In this document: one piece after another, positions 11,966 through 16,319 of the stretch | Numbering within the stretch: position 1 is the first letter of the stretch | Layout: every line of letters starts with the position of its first letter | Origin: Escherichia phage ST2 | Sequence record: OM982647 | Strand: one strand, 5' to 3' | DNA: 64,000 bases | Program-made: the position numbers and the translations under genes | The notes under the pieces: generated by a model | Databases searched by the model: none | Told to the model about the DNA's origin: nothing | The model's input: the letters and a program-made list of their open reading frames with translations, nothing else

Positions 11966-12274
11966 TTACATAAGAAGCAAACGTTCAACCGGAGTACCAT
12001 CAACCGAAATTACTTTATCAAGGCGGAAAGAACGCCACTGACCTAACTCGGTATCGAATGCTCGAACTGATTCACGAGGTTCATAACGAACTTCTGTTGC
12101 CGGATTGTTATTTTCATATTTGACTTCAAGTTCATCGCGCGAAGCAAACATAGTGCGTACCTCGCCGTTAGCCTTTTCAAATACAACACAATGAACGCCT
12201 ACAGACAGAATAGTTTTAATACGTTCACGAAGAACCATAGTTTCTTGTTCAGTTAAAATCATATTATTCACCAC
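11966..12274 (-). CDS. Hypothetical protein (31.1/31.2 position)
   Basis: 102-aa ORF overlapping cd start region. Confidence 0.45.
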   Translation of the reverse strand: MVNNMILTEQETMVLRERIKTILSVGVHCVVFEKANGEVRTMFASRDELEVKYENNNPATEVRYEPRESVRAFDTELGQWRSFRLDKVISVDGTPVERLLLM

Positions 12275-12845
12275 AAAAGTTTCGAATTTGTTCCCAATTC
12301 AGAGAACGAAGATTATTACGAGAGTACTGAATTACTTCAATACCAGCTTGTTTTAGAATGTCGGCCCAATTTTCAGGAGATCTGTCATATAATTCTGCGT
12401 ATACAACCTTTTTAATACCTGACTGCGTAATAGCTTTAGTGCAATCAGGACACGGAGAAAGCGTAGTATATAACGTAGCACCTTCAATAGAATTACCTTT
12501 ACGAGCTGCAAACAAAATTGCATTCAATTCCGCATGGATTTCATTATTAGCAGACCATGCACTATGAGCGGCCCGATGTTCTTTAGCCAAAACAAAATTA
12601 TCCACCCGTCCAAATGCTGTAGTGCCTTCTTTATGCCCAGCAACGATGACCGGGCTTGGTTTATTCTTCAACCAACCGTTTTCGGATGCATGTTCGCAAC
12701 AGTTTGTACCACCTGAAGGAGAGCCATTATAACCTGTAGAAATAATGCGTCCATCTTTTTCAATGACGGCACCAACTTTCCATGAACAACATTTTGATTC
12801 TTGAGAAATCAGATATGCAATCTGAAGGTATGTGCTAGCTTTCAT
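12264..12845 (-). CDS. cd: dCMP deaminase
   Basis: 193 aa; zinc-binding CxxC / HAE motifs; N-terminus MKASTYLQIAYLISQESKCCSWKVGAVIEK as in T4. Confidence 0.9.
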   Translation of the reverse strand: MKASTYLQIAYLISQESKCCSWKVGAVIEKDGRIISTGYNGSPSGGTNCCEHASENGWLKNKPSPVIVAGHKEGTTAFGRVDNFVLAKEHRAAHSAWSANNEIHAELNAILFAARKGNSIEGATLYTTLSPCPDCTKAITQSGIKKVVYAELYDRSPENWADILKQAGIEVIQYSRNNLRSLNWEQIRNFCGE

Positions 12846-13837
12846 TATTGAACCTTATTAATATAAGTTAACAGCTCTTTAGTTTGTTCCCAACTGATGC
12901 ACGCATCGGTAATGGAAACGCCATAGGACATATTATCAGAAATTTTTTGATTTCCTTCATGTAGGAATGATTCTATCATAATTCCTTTGACCAAATCATT
13001 AGCTGCTAAATTTTTACCAATACCAATTTGATTGCTATAATGCCCATCAGCGTTTGCATGGCTACAGTCAACCATTACATAATGATTCAGACCTACTGCC
13101 CTTGCTTTGTTAGAAGCTTCTTGAATATCAGAAGAATGATAGTTCGGGCCGTTGGTCCCGCCACGCAATACGATATGCGTATTCTGATTACCTTCAGCTT
13201 CAACAATGCCTACAGTACCATCGACGTCCATACCCATATACCGATGAGGCCAGGCGGCACTATACATCGCGTCTGTAGCTACTTTAATAGAACCATTGGT
13301 TGCGTTCTTGAAGCCTACGCACATCGGTAGACCTGAAGCAATTTCACGATGTGTCTGACTTTCAGTCGTACGGGCGCCAATAGCAACCCATGAGAAAATA
13401 CCAGAAAGATACTTAATCGTGAATGGGTCTAATACTTCAGTTGCTAATGGAAGTCCCATACGTAGAAGTTTACGACACAATGTTCGTGCAACTATAAGAC
13501 CGTGGTTCATATCAAAACTTCCGTCAAGATATGGATCATTTACAAGACCTTTCCAACCTACGGTAGTTCGAGGCTTTTCAAAATAAACGCGCATCACTAA
13601 CAGAACATTAGGAAGACGAGTTTGAAGTTCAGCCAGACGTTTGCCGTATTCAACAGCAGCAATAGGGTCATGAATTGAACAAGGACCTACAACAATAAGT
13701 TTGCGTGGGTCTTCACCATTCATAATCGAATTAACTTGTTCGCGATGAGAAGCCACTTGTGATGCGTAAGCTTCCGACAAAGGAATAATCTCAGCCAGTT
13801 CTTTTGGAGAAATAAGTTTTCCGACGACAGGTAACAT
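12845..13837 (-). CDS. Class I DAHP synthase (3-deoxy-7-phosphoheptulonate synthase, AroG/F/H-like)
   Basis: 330 aa; FEKPRTTVGWKG, GARTTESQ, VMVDCSHAN, IMIESFLHEGNQ motifs, alignable by eye along its length to E. coli AroG. Confidence 0.8.
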   Translation of the reverse strand: MLPVVGKLISPKELAEIIPLSEAYASQVASHREQVNSIMNGEDPRKLIVVGPCSIHDPIAAVEYGKRLAELQTRLPNVLLVMRVYFEKPRTTVGWKGLVNDPYLDGSFDMNHGLIVARTLCRKLLRMGLPLATEVLDPFTIKYLSGIFSWVAIGARTTESQTHREIASGLPMCVGFKNATNGSIKVATDAMYSAAWPHRYMGMDVDGTVGIVEAEGNQNTHIVLRGGTNGPNYHSSDIQEASNKARAVGLNHYVMVDCSHANADGHYSNQIGIGKNLAANDLVKGIMIESFLHEGNQKISDNMSYGVSITDACISWEQTKELLTYINKVQ

Positions 13838-13957
13838 AACAATCCTTAGGAGATATAAACAGATTCTGATTCAACAATACCTTTAACCGGATTAGACAGG
13901 CTAAGTTGGTAGTGCTCAGATTTATGACCATTCTCGATAGTAATTAGATAGCTCTCA

Positions 13958-14194
13958 TTATAGTGTTCCATATACTCGAGTTGCTTCAACAAGACCATCA
14001 CTGCCTAATTTAAGATTAGTAATTTGGTCACCATCTTTAGGATTAACGATTATGAGAAAAGAACGTGGAGATTCTTGAATAACTCGTAATGTTGCATCCT
14101 GGAAACGTTCAGATACTTTATTAATCAAAGTCTGAGCGAACTCTTTTACTTTAACATGAAATTCTTGAAGCGTGATAGGTTTTTCACTTAACAT
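13958..14194 (-). CDS. Hypothetical protein
   Basis: 78-aa ORF; ATG with SD GAGGAAAACAGA. Confidence 0.45.
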   Translation of the reverse strand: MLSEKPITLQEFHVKVKEFAQTLINKVSERFQDATLRVIQESPRSFLIIVNPKDGDQITNLKLGSDGLVEATRVYGTL

Positions 14195-14220: not shown

Positions 14221-14255
14221 GTCATAGTATCACAACTCCACCATGTTGTAAACTT
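14221..14255 (-). promoter_or_regulatory. T4-type early promoter
   Basis: GTTTACA then GTGATACTATG. Confidence 0.45.
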
Positions 14256-16019: not shown

Positions 16020-16020
<1 letters not shown>

Positions 16021-16319
16021 TATTTTATTCCTAAGAAAGTTTCAAGAATACGAATGTTATGCTCGCGCCGGTCTTTATTAATTTCAGCAACGTTTTTATT
16101 AATTGACGTACTTCTAACGTTTGAAGAAATAAATTTAATCATATGACTTTTGAGTTGTTGCAAATCCAACCCTTTTTCTTTAGCAGCTTTACGAAGAGCT
16201 TTACCTGCTTCATCTAGTGCCTTTGCTGCATCTTTATCATAATTGCCAAGTGACATTCCACGGCAGATATCAATATACTCATCCGACCGTTTGATGTAAT
16301 TCTCTAGTAATGTTTTCAT
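16020..16319 (-). CDS. Hypothetical protein
   Basis: 99-aa ORF, SD GAGGAAATCTAA. Confidence 0.45.

Follow-up and report, generated by a model that had tools for sequence, protein, structure and literature searches.

The closest described relatives of the phage enzyme considered here are the DAHP synthases (DAHPS) of Escherichia coli, AroF (6AGM/6AGL), AroG (1KFL) and AroH. In bacterial enzymes of this type the side chains of Q151/Q152 and S180/S181 bind the main chain of the inhibitor, and inhibition is lost in S180F, P150L and F209A/S variants as well as in AroFcg Q159A/S188F (PMC9529685). In AroG, D6 and D7 are also part of the Phe site, and the D6G-D7A variant is more Phe-resistant than S180F (PMC6520568). 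D155 is a further listed residue of the inhibitor site, for which expression of the Ala variant failed.

A second set of described systems concerns the hydroxylation of pyrimidines. TrhP and RlhA, bacterial members of the U32 family, are prephenate-dependent pyrimidine C5 hydroxylases acting on U and C, and CmoA also uses prephenate (PMC6599085); a motif of the form E-x7-C-x6-C is essential in both TrhP and RlhA. The DNA of RB69-group phages carries arabinosylated 5-hydroxycytosine, which is formed aerobically via a flavin/O2 TS homologue that alone yields 5hodC in aerobic E. coli, while the authors of that study suggested a role as "sugar or heterocycle reductase" for the U32 protein of these phages (PMC13326640). 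Finally, classical auxiliary metabolic genes (AMGs), such as those for pathway-entry or bottleneck enzymes in cyanophages, likewise place a host-type, flux-controlling step in a lytic phage and are dispensable in some relatives.

An AroF-like DAHP synthase in an early gene unit

The gene is found in a Mosigvirus genome (T4-like, RB69 group), in the order cd.2-DAHPS-cd, within the window, i.e., the whole stretch of 64,000 nucleotides that was analysed. Its features are the following, in the direction of transcription:

14224..14252, minus strand: candidate early-promoter-like site, TTTACA-17-TACTAT with an upstream TG (scan and conservation)
13958..14194, minus strand: cd.2 homologue, 78 aa, DUF7320, upstream in the same transcription unit (ORF list, Pfam, PhAPEC2 annotation)
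13947..13963, minus strand: upstream copy of an imperfect 17-nt direct repeat, CTATAATGAGAGCTATC, located at the left border of the DAHPS segment
13838..13957, minus strand: 120-nt spacer from the cd.2 homologue to DAHPS (sequence reading)
13843..13847, minus strand: Shine-Dalgarno AAGGA, 5 nt ahead of the ATG (sequence reading)
12845..13837, minus strand: DAHP synthase coding sequence, 330 aa (profile matches, alignment, AF2 and Foldseek)
12834..12850, minus strand: downstream copy of the direct repeat, CAATAATGAAAGCTAGC, covering the stop codon of DAHPS and the start codon of cd
12264..12845, minus strand: cd, dCMP deaminase, 193 aa, downstream gene (Pfam PF00383; PhAPEC2 and Bas46 annotation)

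The 330-aa open reading frame (ORF) runs from an ATG at 13835-13837 to a TAA stop at 12845-12847, and its translation contains all four blocks on which an earlier note on this DNA had based its assignment to class I DAHP synthases, namely FEKPRTTVGWKG, GARTTESQ, VMVDCSHAN and IMIESFLHEGNQ. The assignment stands: the ORF encodes a type I-alpha (class I) DAHP synthase that is AroF-like. Indeed, the profile search which that note had proposed gave family matches over the full length, far above the curated cut-offs, with PF00793 at E=4e-75 (252.6 bits, cut-off 25.5), NCBIfam TIGR00034 (aroFGH) at 428 bits (cut-off 173) and the AroF-type model NF009395 at 455 bits (cut-off 343), while the AroG and AroH equivalog models were missed (363 bits for a cut-off of 568 and 387 for 463, respectively). 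The top sequence match in the PDB is AroF (6AGM), and alignment with the E. coli enzymes gives identities of 51% to AroF, 48% to AroG and 44% to AroH. Among phage families, the ORF belongs to PHROG 5045 (E=3e-182).

The catalytic site is preserved. The metal ligands C53, H260, E289 and D311 (AroG C61, H268, E302 and D326) are invariant in 123/123 aligned sequences, and the PEP/E4P site is complete, with R83, K88-P-R90-T91, A155-R156, K177 and R225 at the places of AroG R92, K97-P-R99-T100, A164-R165, K186 and R234. In the alignment with AroF, AroG and AroH, none of the metal- or PEP-binding residues is lost, a loss that the earlier note had named as speaking against its reading, and the phage enzyme is predicted to be catalytically complete, converting PEP and erythrose-4-phosphate (E4P) to DAHP and Pi. 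The AF2 model (pLDDT 90.7, pTM 0.90) is a (beta/alpha)8 barrel that retains the beta6a/6b insertion (strands 198-203 and 209-214), and in Foldseek it reaches TM values of 0.93-0.95 to 3TQK, NmeDAH7PS (4HSO) and AroG 1KFL. Thus, fold, chemistry and the metal, PEP and E4P ligands are common to the phage enzyme and its E. coli counterparts, and so are the beta6a/6b hairpin and a Gly at the Tyr/Phe-selectivity position. The phage enzyme differs from AroF, AroG and AroH in being 20-26 residues shorter, without the first 8-9 residues, with internal deletions of 5 aa and 3 aa and a shorter C-terminus; its inhibitor contacts are replaced, and it is encoded by a viral gene with phage codon usage.

The DAHPS gene is part of an early cd.2-DAHPS-cd unit. 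The promoter-like site at 14224..14252 is conserved in RB69 and T4, and the T4 record places the early promoter Pe133295 (misc_feature) at the matching position between cd.3 and cd.2. A scan found no promoter or terminator consensus within the 120-nt spacer between cd.2 and DAHPS, and no minus-strand terminator was found. The DAHPS stop overlaps the cd start in the sequence TAATG, in line with the translational coupling to cd proposed before. The early-operon location put forward at the same time also holds, as the gene belongs to the early pseT-cd block. The description of the gene as lying between pseT and cd is right on the cd side, while directly upstream it is flanked by the cd.2 homologue, with pseT ~1.1 kb further upstream, beyond four small ORFs. 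GC3 of the gene is 0.294, compared with 0.303+-0.043 in 46 ORFs of the window and 0.51-0.57 in E. coli aroF/G/H; the gene is fully ameliorated, which agrees with the earlier view that it has phage-like codon usage and is not a recent raw acquisition. According to the Bas46 annotation, DAHPS is placed in a nucleotide-metabolism block (cd, nrdAB, td and frd within ~11 kb). It lies ~100 kb away from the DNA-modification cluster, which is outside the window.

The 120-nt spacer begins with a vestige of the 5' end of cd, the mini-ORF ATGAGAGCTATCTAA at 13944-13958, and the two copies of the direct repeat share 14/17 nucleotides (P about 2e-6 for fixed positions). RB69 has one repeat copy, exactly at its cd.2/cd junction; both RB69 and T4 are without DAHPS, and in T4 the slot is occupied by the 112-aa cd.1, in agreement with the small cd.x ORFs that the earlier note gave for T4. 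That note had described the gene as inserted, which is probably the wrong direction, since DAHPS occupies a syntenic position in at least four further genera of T4-like phages and is present in ~140 of ~150 RB69-like records; the uninterrupted RB69-type junction occurs in only 11 records. RB69 and T4 probably represent states without the gene, rather than the phage in the window being one that gained it.

Changes in the inhibitor pocket

The N-terminus of the phage enzyme starts 8 residues later than that of AroG (phage L2 corresponds to AroG I10) and 9 later than that of AroF. This is the shortening of about 8 aa that had been noticed relative to AroG, and the inhibitor-binding residues D6 and D7 are lost with it; the segment carrying these contacts (N8 in AroF) is absent across the phage clade, a group of 25 phage sequences. 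The changes fixed in this clade are, in AroG numbering, Q151K, D155G, S180P, F209Y and P150I. In particular, phage residues K142, G146, P171 and Y200 stand at Q151, D155, S180 and F209 in 24-25/25 clade sequences, and bacterial enzymes hold Q, D, S and F at these sites in 96-98/98. The possible deregulation raised by the earlier note is strengthened by these four additional inhibitor-site residues, which appear to be replaced throughout the clade. The canonical site for aromatic amino acids is therefore not found in the phage enzyme, which bears on its regulation and not on its membership of the catalytic family.

The replacements are concentrated at the pocket. Indeed, 98 bacterial enzymes share 122 columns with a conservation of >=90%. 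The phage clade departs from them, in >=90% of its sequences, at just 9 columns, of which 4 (Q151, D155, S180 and F209) belong to the inhibitor site of 9 residues described in the literature (Fisher p=4.5e-4). They are also maintained once changed: replacements are conserved within the clade at 10/13 pocket positions, compared with 41% overall (p=0.008), and they recur in 24-25/25 sequences that are only 56-77% identical to each other overall. As judged from the sequences, the inhibitor pocket for aromatic amino acids has been rebuilt in the phage clade. Since changes at D6/D7, Q151, S180, F209 and P150 make bacterial enzymes resistant, the phage enzyme is inferred to be feedback-resistant, and it is fairly likely that none of Tyr, Phe and Trp shuts it off. 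The engineered resistant enzymes (AroG S180F, P150L, D146N, F209A/S and D6G-D7A; AroFcg Q159A and S188F) share positions with the phage changes, from which they differ in that the phage form appears to be a natural variant, conserved in a clade, that combines several positions with other replacements (K, P, Y, I and G).

Two points on individual positions speak against such resistance. A natural S180P is also present in a bacterium, Pasteurella P0120, and a Lys at position 151 could still bind carboxylate.

Distribution of the gene and of the U32 protein

The DAHPS gene is not new. It is annotated in ~195-200 phage records in RefSeq and GenBank and has its own PHROG; in particular, it is the same gene as PhAPEC2 gp185 of PHROG 5045, to which it is identical in 990/990 nt and 100% of the protein. 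The survey of orthologs at the cd locus suggested by the earlier note finds the gene annotated there in ~195 T4-like phages of several genera, under names such as "phospho-2-dehydro-3-deoxyheptonate aldolase", "putative aldolase" in Bas46 and "aroF" in O157 typing phage 6. The accessible literature mentions phage DAHPS only in passing, as annotation, and no experiment on the enzyme was found there. By phage host, the records are distributed among Escherichia (124), Klebsiella (25), Shigella (12), Proteus (7), Serratia (6), Enterobacter (4) and Edwardsiella (3). The phage DAHPS clade is monophyletic and confined to T4-like phages, with the 25 sequences forming a split in 200/200 NJ bootstraps, and it is under purifying selection, with a cross-genus dN/dS of 0.18-0.23. 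No bacterial donor can be named, the best bacterial matches being only 49-55% identical and coming from unrelated phyla. Faecal "Bacteriophage sp." contigs, flagged UNVERIFIED and considered as independent cases, encode an ABC transporter and MarR together with a type I dehydroquinase and are probably bacterial, and among the Acinetobacter MD-2021a records a 328-kb contig with kdsD is likely bacterial as well; both sets were left out as examples of phage DAHPS.

The hosts of DAHPS-carrying phages resemble those of phages with a U32-family protein, which is encoded inside the 5-hydroxycytosine DNA gene cluster of these phages. A tblastn search with the RB69 U32 protein returned 221 phage records, from phages of Escherichia (136), Klebsiella (26), Shigella (14), Serratia (7), Proteus (7), Enterobacter (4) and Edwardsiella (3). 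Compared in this way by host genus, the DAHPS and U32 counts nearly coincide, with common descent as a confounder because all carriers belong to one part of Straboviridae. PhAPEC2 carries both genes; the exceptions are RB69 and ~10 relatives, which have U32 without DAHPS, and Yersinia Tegunavirus, where U32 and a chorismate mutase are present and DAHPS is absent.

The phage U32 proteins are divergent. Those of RB69 and Klebsiella F48 pass Pfam PF01136 (42-45 bits, cut-off 22.4), a sequence search against the PDB gave no match, and hhalign, with a probability of 87.5%, aligns phage E188 to TrhP E162. C195, C206 and C212 follow E188 with a spacing unlike the E-x7-C-x6-C of TrhP and RlhA, so that only the Glu and some Cys can be placed. 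Between the U32 and 5hodCMP-synthase genes, a chorismate mutase of the AroQ type (CM_2, 39.5 bits, cut-off 27) is encoded in 50 records, in many genera directly beside the U32 gene, from Klebsiella, Enterobacter, Serratia, Yersinia and other phages; it was not detected in Mosigvirus, the group of the window itself. RB69p049, which takes the chorismate mutase slot, was considered as a divergent form and rejected, as it has no Pfam or NCBIfam match, cannot be aligned and belongs to a different PHROG. Aeromonas phage HJ05 carries a separately diverged DAHPS with a non-canonical pocket (Q151H, D155P, S180P and F209V), three genes away from a CmoA-like gene.

Possible roles of the phage enzyme

What goes beyond existing annotation is the rebuilt pocket together with a distribution that mirrors that of the U32 protein, and both could be accommodated if the enzyme served the supply of prephenate. 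A deregulated DAHPS would push carbon into the host shikimate pathway despite repletion with aromatic amino acids, when the host isozymes are inhibited, and the product that matters would be chorismate or prephenate and not the amino acids, as deregulation would be needed only if an intermediate is wanted rather than an end product. The phage U32 protein would then hydroxylate cytosine at C5 with prephenate, as TrhP and RlhA do, on a route that, by inference, needs no O2 and may work as a back-up for the O2/flavin-dependent TS homologue when oxygen is absent. The need for prephenate would amount to ~64,000 cytosines per genome multiplied by the burst size, to be covered by the deregulated entry enzyme, alone or together with a chorismate mutase of the phage, and a demand stoichiometric with genome cytosines would explain why enzymes for its supply are encoded by the phage. 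TrhP and RlhA are similarly paired with the O2-dependent TrhO, just as these phages encode U32 beside an O2/flavin hydroxylase, often with chorismate mutase; the phage substrate, however, would be a deoxynucleotide or DNA and not RNA, and the phage U32 is divergent. We regard the whole account, in which a deregulated DAHPS feeds prephenate to O2-independent cytosine hydroxylation, as evenly poised. The chances that the wanted product is chorismate or prephenate, serving U32-linked cytosine hydroxylation, fall slightly short of even, and it is proposed more tentatively still that T4-like phages with 5-hydroxycytosine run two hydroxylation routes, as bacteria do for ho5U in tRNA, with DAHPS (and chorismate mutase elsewhere) supplying the prephenate. 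What speaks against the account is that the shared distribution is confounded by common descent, that U32 also occurs without DAHPS, that chorismate mutase was not detected in Mosigvirus, that the TS homologue alone is enough for 5hodC in aerobic E. coli, that its authors favour another role for the U32 protein, which is divergent, and that DAHPS lies ~100 kb from the cluster.

A more conventional reading, and the main rival, is that of an ordinary AMG that keeps the synthesis of Phe, Tyr and Trp for virion proteins running after host transcription is shut off, with deregulation maximising flux. This is the reading given in phage-genome papers on Klebsiella KLB31 (PMC11845039) and phiC120 (PMC8022965), and overexpression of feedback-resistant DAHPS does raise the aromatic output of E. 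coli (PMC6520568). The gene is intact, conserved and in an early unit, and as a host-type enzyme in a virus, outside the core replication and structural set and variably present among relatives, it is an AMG, as the earlier note had it; aromatic amino acids as its purpose may not be right. Feedback control would be harmless if amino acids were wanted, which leaves the conserved, clade-wide rebuilding of the pocket unexplained, and the same holds for the restriction of the gene to U32-carrying T4-like phages, given that T4-type relatives with equal protein demand lack it, and for a chorismate mutase inside the DNA-modification cluster. Moreover, the annotation of those 50 kb of Bas46 that are collinear with most of the window shows no downstream gene of the aromatic pathway. 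Taken together, supply of amino acids seems rather unlikely as the role of the enzyme; compared with classical AMGs, what likely benefits here is a DNA modification specific to these phages, rather than bulk biosynthesis, and the regulatory site is remodelled.

The conservation of the replaced residues, which are not decaying, would also suit an allosteric pocket re-tooled for another effector, e.g., prephenate or chorismate, giving the phage a feedback loop of its own. The loss of acidic groups (D6/D7 and D155) and the gain of a Lys at 151 may disfavour an ammonium and favour a carboxylate group. Conservation could, however, equally be explained by a stabilised active conformation, and such re-tooling, which would be compatible with a role in prephenate supply, is considered improbable. 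Less probable again is a normally regulated, Tyr-sensitive isozyme of the AroF type, in which the pocket changes are neutral drift and inhibition persists. The best family and structure matches of the phage enzyme are indeed to AroF (NF009395 passes and 6AGM is the top PDB sequence match), at AroG position 211 it has the Gly of the Tyr type, which also makes for a better match to the NmeDAH7PS S213G variant, and the beta6a/6b regulatory hairpin is kept in the AF2 model. Yet the contacts to the amino-acid moiety of the inhibitor (Q151, S180 and D6/D7) are all replaced or absent, experimental changes at these positions abolish inhibition, and drift would not give replacements conserved in 24-25/25 sequences at 56-77% identity.

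A role as a lever on carbon flux, in which an irreversible sink for E4P (and PEP) pulls transketolase toward pentose phosphates for nucleotides and DNA arabinose, is very hard to credit, as a sink for E4P, which transaldolase normally recycles, wastes carbon. The position of the gene in the nucleotide-metabolism block (cd, nrdAB, td and frd) and the diversion of ribulose-5-P to UDP-arabinose by these phages (PMC13326640) speak for such a sink, which was mostly dropped because arabinose-5-phosphate isomerase was rejected as a correlate of DAHPS: tblastn with RB69 gp55 returned 261 records with a different host spectrum, including 57 from Acinetobacter phages, a host with none in the U32 list and with four DAHPS records that include a likely bacterial contig, and at most 3 from Klebsiella phages, ~25 of which have DAHPS. 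Klebsiella F48 has DAHPS and lacks the isomerase gene in its cluster.

The tie between DAHPS, U32 and chorismate mutase joins two questions, namely why these phages carry the entry enzyme of the shikimate pathway and what the U32 protein of the cluster does. If prephenate supply is indeed the role of the enzyme, this would be the first virus to rewire the shikimate pathway to feed DNA hypermodification, and the pairing of DAHPS with a CmoA-like gene in the Aeromonas phage would be a second, convergent instance. The enzyme is also of interest to engineers of aromatic compounds as an apparent natural multi-site pocket variant of a type I-alpha DAHPS. If the link is right, gut phages would need prephenate to protect their DNA without oxygen, which would affect the understanding of restriction evasion and host range.

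Identity, locus and history of the DAHP synthase gene

The phage DAHP synthase gene (DAHPS) and two elements around it are placed as follows.

12845-13837, minus strand: DAHPS ORF, 330 codons (ATG 13835-13837, TAA 12845-12847)
13947-13963 and 12834-12850, minus strand: 17-nt imperfect direct repeat (14/17 matches) flanking the 1.1-kb DAHPS segment
14252-14224, minus strand: promoter-like TTTACA-17-TACTAT upstream of cd.2, conserved with RB69 and T4

AAGGA lies five bases 5' of the DAHPS start codon. The product matches Pfam DAHP_synth_1 (E=4e-75) and, over its full length, PHROG 5045, 'phospho-2-dehydro-3-deoxyheptonate aldolase' (E=3e-182). Among NCBIfam models it scores 428 bits with the aroFGH equivalog TIGR00034 (cut-off 173) and 455 bits with the generic DAHP-synthase subfamily model NF009395 (PRK12755; cut-off 343), and falls below cut-off with the AroG and AroH models (363<568 and 387<463, respectively). 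Of the solved structures, E. coli AroF is the nearest in sequence (6AGM, E=7e-105), and an AlphaFold model built from a 41-sequence alignment (pLDDT 90.7) has a TM of 0.93-0.95 to solved type I-alpha DAHP synthases. The metal ligands (C53, H260, E289, D311) and the PEP/E4P ligands (R83, K88, R90, T91, A155, R156, K177, R225) are kept, and all four motif blocks quoted in the earlier note are found in the translation. With family scores above cut-off and these ligands retained, the class I assignment of that note is confirmed, and the ORF is almost certainly a DAHP synthase.

The earlier note is right in both what it observed and how it read it, but the gene call itself is ordinary and was already known, as many records carry the label DAHP synthase, aroF or 'putative aldolase'. 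ORF64 of phiC120 is said to have a 'DAHP synthetase domain' (PMC8022965), and the full-text literature yielded passing remarks and no experiments on phage DAHPS. By tblastn, DAHPS is found in 212 phage records, a count inflated by bacterial-looking 'Bacteriophage sp.' contigs: 139 (Escherichia and Shigella Mosigvirus) are at least 95% identical, 47 (Klebsiella, Enterobacter, Edwardsiella, Erwinia, Serratia and EcS1) are 60-80% identical, and a Proteus and Providencia group is 56-59% identical, with a few outliers besides. Two UNVERIFIED faecal contigs, MT837410.1 and MT838377.1, were rejected as phage cases; the genes beside DAHPS there encode an ABC transporter, MarR and type I dehydroquinase, or GH25 muramidases.

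The surrounding region is 97-98% identical to the Mosigviruses PhAPEC2, ChristianSchoenbein (Bas46) and AlbertHofmann (Bas47). The minus-strand order is pseT, cd.4, an RB69ORF227-like ORF, cd.3, cd.2, DAHPS, cd, 31.1, 31 and rIII, and the slot is therefore that between cd.2 and cd. Thus, of the earlier placement 'inserted between pseT and cd', the downstream neighbour stands and the immediate upstream neighbour is cd.2. At this slot T4 has the 112-aa cd.1, in keeping with the small cd.x ORFs given for it in the earlier note, and in RB69 cd.2 directly abuts cd. The proposed translational coupling is borne out by the DAHPS stop, which overlaps the cd start as TAATG. DAHPS is likely transcribed early together with cd, as the claimed early-operon position implied, because the promoter-like site, which matches the place of an early promoter in the T4 record, lies upstream and no terminator-like sites were found on the minus strand from pseT to gene 31. 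Codon usage is of the phage type, also as claimed: GC3 is 0.294, close to that of 46 ORFs of the window (0.303±0.043) and below that of E. coli aroF/G/H (0.51-0.57), and the log-likelihood ratio for synonymous codons is 0.20 (phage background 0.22±0.06).

This variable block is populated by mobile endonucleases: Proteus phage PM2 has a homing endonuclease gene between pseT and DAHPS (L009, 1606-2322), and a 99-aa ORF just upstream of pseT (16020-16319) is labelled 'putative homing endonuclease' in Bas46. A putative 51-aa ORF (13846-14001) overlaps the cd.2 3' end and the spacer upstream of DAHPS; its Bas46 version (13846-13971) is a 41-aa hypothetical protein. The cd gene has 193 aa in T4 and in the window (12264-12845), where it abuts or overlaps the next ORF; in RB69 (L002, 5743-6252) it is annotated with 169 aa and a 76-nt gap to gene 31.1, which may reflect a 3' truncation or a frameshift in the RB69 record.

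A search of about 5.8 billion protein clusters gave, within its best 120 hits, a compact group of 24 (56-98% identical, 319-343 aa) whose named members are all T4-like phages, the rest of the 120 being bacterial (at most 55% identity, 341-385 aa). The phage group is recovered as a split in 200/200 neighbour-joining bootstraps, and its place in the tree is with the part that contains AroF; no bacterial donor could be named from these hits and this tree. A survey of T4-like genomes placed DAHPS between pseT and cd also in Klebsiella F48 (Marfavirus), Serratia X20 (Winklervirus) and Proteus PM2 (Bragavirus), and a deep-branching metagenomic T4-like contig has it at this locus, again overlapping cd. 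Across genera dN/dS is 0.18-0.23. An uninterrupted RB69-type cd.2/cd junction occurs in only 11 phage records, and in about 140 RB69-like records it is split by the DAHPS segment. The upstream repeat copy is a relic of the start of cd (a 4-codon mini-ORF, ATGAGAGCTATCTAA, 13944-13958), and RB69 has exactly one copy, at the cd.2/cd junction, which points to a deletion between the two copies. The simplest reading of these sequences would be that DAHPS is long resident in the lineage and was deleted in RB69, so that 'inserted' is probably the wrong direction. DAHPS is identical to PhAPEC2 gp185 at 990/990 nt (12848-13837), above the identity of the surrounding 3.9 kb (97.0% to PhAPEC2, 98% to Bas46 and PTK), pointing to local mosaicism or recent exchange among Mosigviruses.

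Remodelling of the inhibitor site

The regulatory pocket was tabulated, in AroG numbering, for 25 phage-clade and 98 bacterial sequences, all of which keep the catalytic set. Only 5-9 residues precede L16 in the phage clade, compared with 13 or more in bacteria; the clade thus lacks the stretch that carries D6/D7 in AroG, and the N-terminal shortening that the earlier note had seen in the feedback region extends to all of it. In addition, Q151K (one R), D155G, S180P, F209Y and P150I are each present in 24-25 of the 25 phage sequences, the bacterial residues being Q151 (98/98), D155 (96/98), S180 (96/98) and F209 (98/98). In an unbiased scan of 122 columns at least 90% conserved in bacteria, only nine were changed in at least 90% of the phage clade, and four of these nine fall within the nine-residue inhibitor site (Fisher p=4.5e-4), which was derived from crystal structures of AroG with Phe and AroF with Tyr (PMC9529685). 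Among the 98 bacterial sequences, that of Pasteurella multocida (P0120) alone has S180P, and keeps Q151, D155 and F209. In E. coli AroF, Tyr resistance arises from N8K and from deletion of I11. The side chains of Q151/Q152 and S180/S181 hold the inhibitor main chain; S180F, P150L, L175D, F209A/S and D146N make AroG resistant, and AroFcg Q159A and S188F lose Tyr inhibition (PMC9529685). The Phe site includes D6 and D7, and D6G-D7A outdoes S180F in resistance (PMC6520568).

Of the 13 pocket positions, 10 are at least 95% conserved among the phage-clade sequences, compared with 41% of all positions (p=0.008). Since the replacements are conserved and the beta6a/6b hairpin persists in the model, the inhibitor site is, judged from the alignment, remodelled under selection rather than decaying. 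The missing segment and fixed replacements indicate that classical aromatic-amino-acid feedback has probably been lost, which favours the deregulation the earlier note thought possible; the remodelled pocket may now accommodate another ligand or help to hold the enzyme in its active state.

Association with the 5-hydroxycytosine cluster

Mosigvirus DNA is arabinosylated according to the BASEL paper. In RB69-type phages the arabinosylated base is 5-hydroxycytosine, formed under aerobic conditions by a thymidylate-synthase (TS) homologue that depends on flavin and O2, RB69 gp48; the gene cluster is conserved in Mosig-, Braga-, Marfa-, Kanagawa-, Kagamiyama- and other viruses (PMC13326640). These genera largely overlap those with DAHPS, Winklervirus being missing from that list. 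The cluster also encodes a 'peptidase' of the Pfam Peptidase_U32 family (U32; RB69p050 and F48 gp095, 42 and 45 bits, cut-off 22.4), whose gene lies outside the window. Host-genus counts of U32 and DAHPS nearly coincide, counts that are confounded by shared ancestry.

Phage records with U32 and with DAHPS, by first word of the organism name (confounded by shared ancestry)
Escherichia: U32 136, DAHPS 124
Klebsiella: U32 26, DAHPS 25
Shigella: U32 14, DAHPS 12
Serratia: U32 7, DAHPS 6
Proteus: U32 7, DAHPS 7
Enterobacter: U32 4, DAHPS 4
Enterobacteria: U32 3, DAHPS 3
Edwardsiella: U32 3, DAHPS 3

The link is not obligatory, because RB69 and about 10 relatives have U32 without DAHPS, as do Yersinia Tegunavirus, in which chorismate mutase is present. 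Arabinose-5-phosphate isomerase was rejected as a correlate, its hosts being a misfit (Acinetobacter 57 records, Klebsiella at most 3) and F48 lacking it.

In Enterobacter phage Entb_45 the gene between those for U32 and the hydroxylase (L018, 6170-6409) is annotated chorismate mutase, and its F48 homologue (L016, 21573-21818) is matched along its whole length by Pfam CM_2 (39.5 bits, cut-off 27). This 80-aa AroQ-type gene is found by tblastn in 50 phage records (hosts Klebsiella, Serratia, Yersinia, Enterobacter, Edwardsiella, Erwinia, Pectobacterium, Shewanella, Providencia, Morganella and Kosakonia, and EcS1) and, among the matches listed with an annotated stretch, always has U32, the TS homologue or both as neighbours. 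Most records call it 'hypothetical protein', and PHROG 10027 gives 'unknown function'. None was detected in Mosigvirus, the group of the window; there, an unrelated 79-aa ORF (RB69p049; L015, 4257-4496; PHROG 8601) stands between U32 and the TS homologue.

A PDB sequence search with the phage U32 protein gave no hit, and of the TrhP motif no more than the Glu and some Cys could be placed in this divergent protein (hhalign probability 87.5%). Three phage U32 proteins (L015 4493-5662, L016 20416-21576, L018 5001-6173; 86% identical) conserve 13/13 cysteines, and these include a C-terminal Cx4Cx3Cx2C cluster that TrhP, RlhA, UbiU and UbiV of E. coli lack, which suggests a putative extra Fe-S or metal site.

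Prephenate supply as a possible role

Prephenate is the product of chorismate mutase, and UbiU/UbiV, also U32 proteins, serve O2-independent hydroxylations in ubiquinone synthesis. The bacterial U32 proteins TrhP and RlhA act in prephenate-dependent formation of ho5U in tRNA and ho5C in 23S rRNA, respectively, with TrhO as a parallel O2-dependent route (PMC6599085). Accessible papers on RB69-type phages make no mention of prephenate, chorismate or U32, and one labels RB69p050 'sugar or heterocycle reductase'. The phage U32 protein could be a prephenate-dependent, O2-independent cytosine C5 hydroxylase, supplied with its co-substrate by deregulated DAHPS and, where present, the phage chorismate mutase. 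Every cytosine would have to be hydroxylated, about 64,000 per 169-kb genome at 38% GC, times the burst size, in a gut with little oxygen and plentiful aromatic amino acids, by which host DAHP synthases would therefore be inhibited.

Prephenate supply is tentatively put forward as the purpose of DAHPS. It would explain why feedback control was dropped, the wanted product being an intermediate and not the end products, and would account for confinement to U32-bearing T4-like phages, for early expression with nucleotide-metabolism genes and for dispensability in RB69, long propagated in the laboratory. Its main rival, plain aromatic-amino-acid supply, in which the end products themselves would be wanted, is rather unlikely; a role as an amino-acid auxiliary metabolic gene was hypothesised for Klebsiella KLB31 DAHPS (PMC11845039). 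Less weight is given to a Tyr-sensitive isozyme that persists, to an effector site that has been re-tooled and to a sink for E4P/PEP.

Aeromonas phage HJ05 (79 kb, unrelated) gives a hint of prephenate-based nucleobase modification, convergent with the T4-like case: it has a separately diverged DAHPS (37% identity, TIGR00034 275 bits) with a non-canonical pocket (Q151H, D155P, S180P, F209V) and, three genes away, a CmoA-like gene (TIGR00740 E=7e-35, below cut-off); CmoA consumes prephenate (PMC6599085). On one strand of HJ05 (L010, 287-5543) lie this methyltransferase-fold gene, two ORFs (one weakly terminase-like), DAHPS and an Acb2/Tad1-hairpin gene, an anti-CBASS/Thoeris sponge.

Collectively, the natural, clade-wide rebuilding of a feedback pocket and a tie of DAHPS to the U32 and chorismate-mutase genes are what is added to a known gene call, and they are moderately interesting and directly testable.
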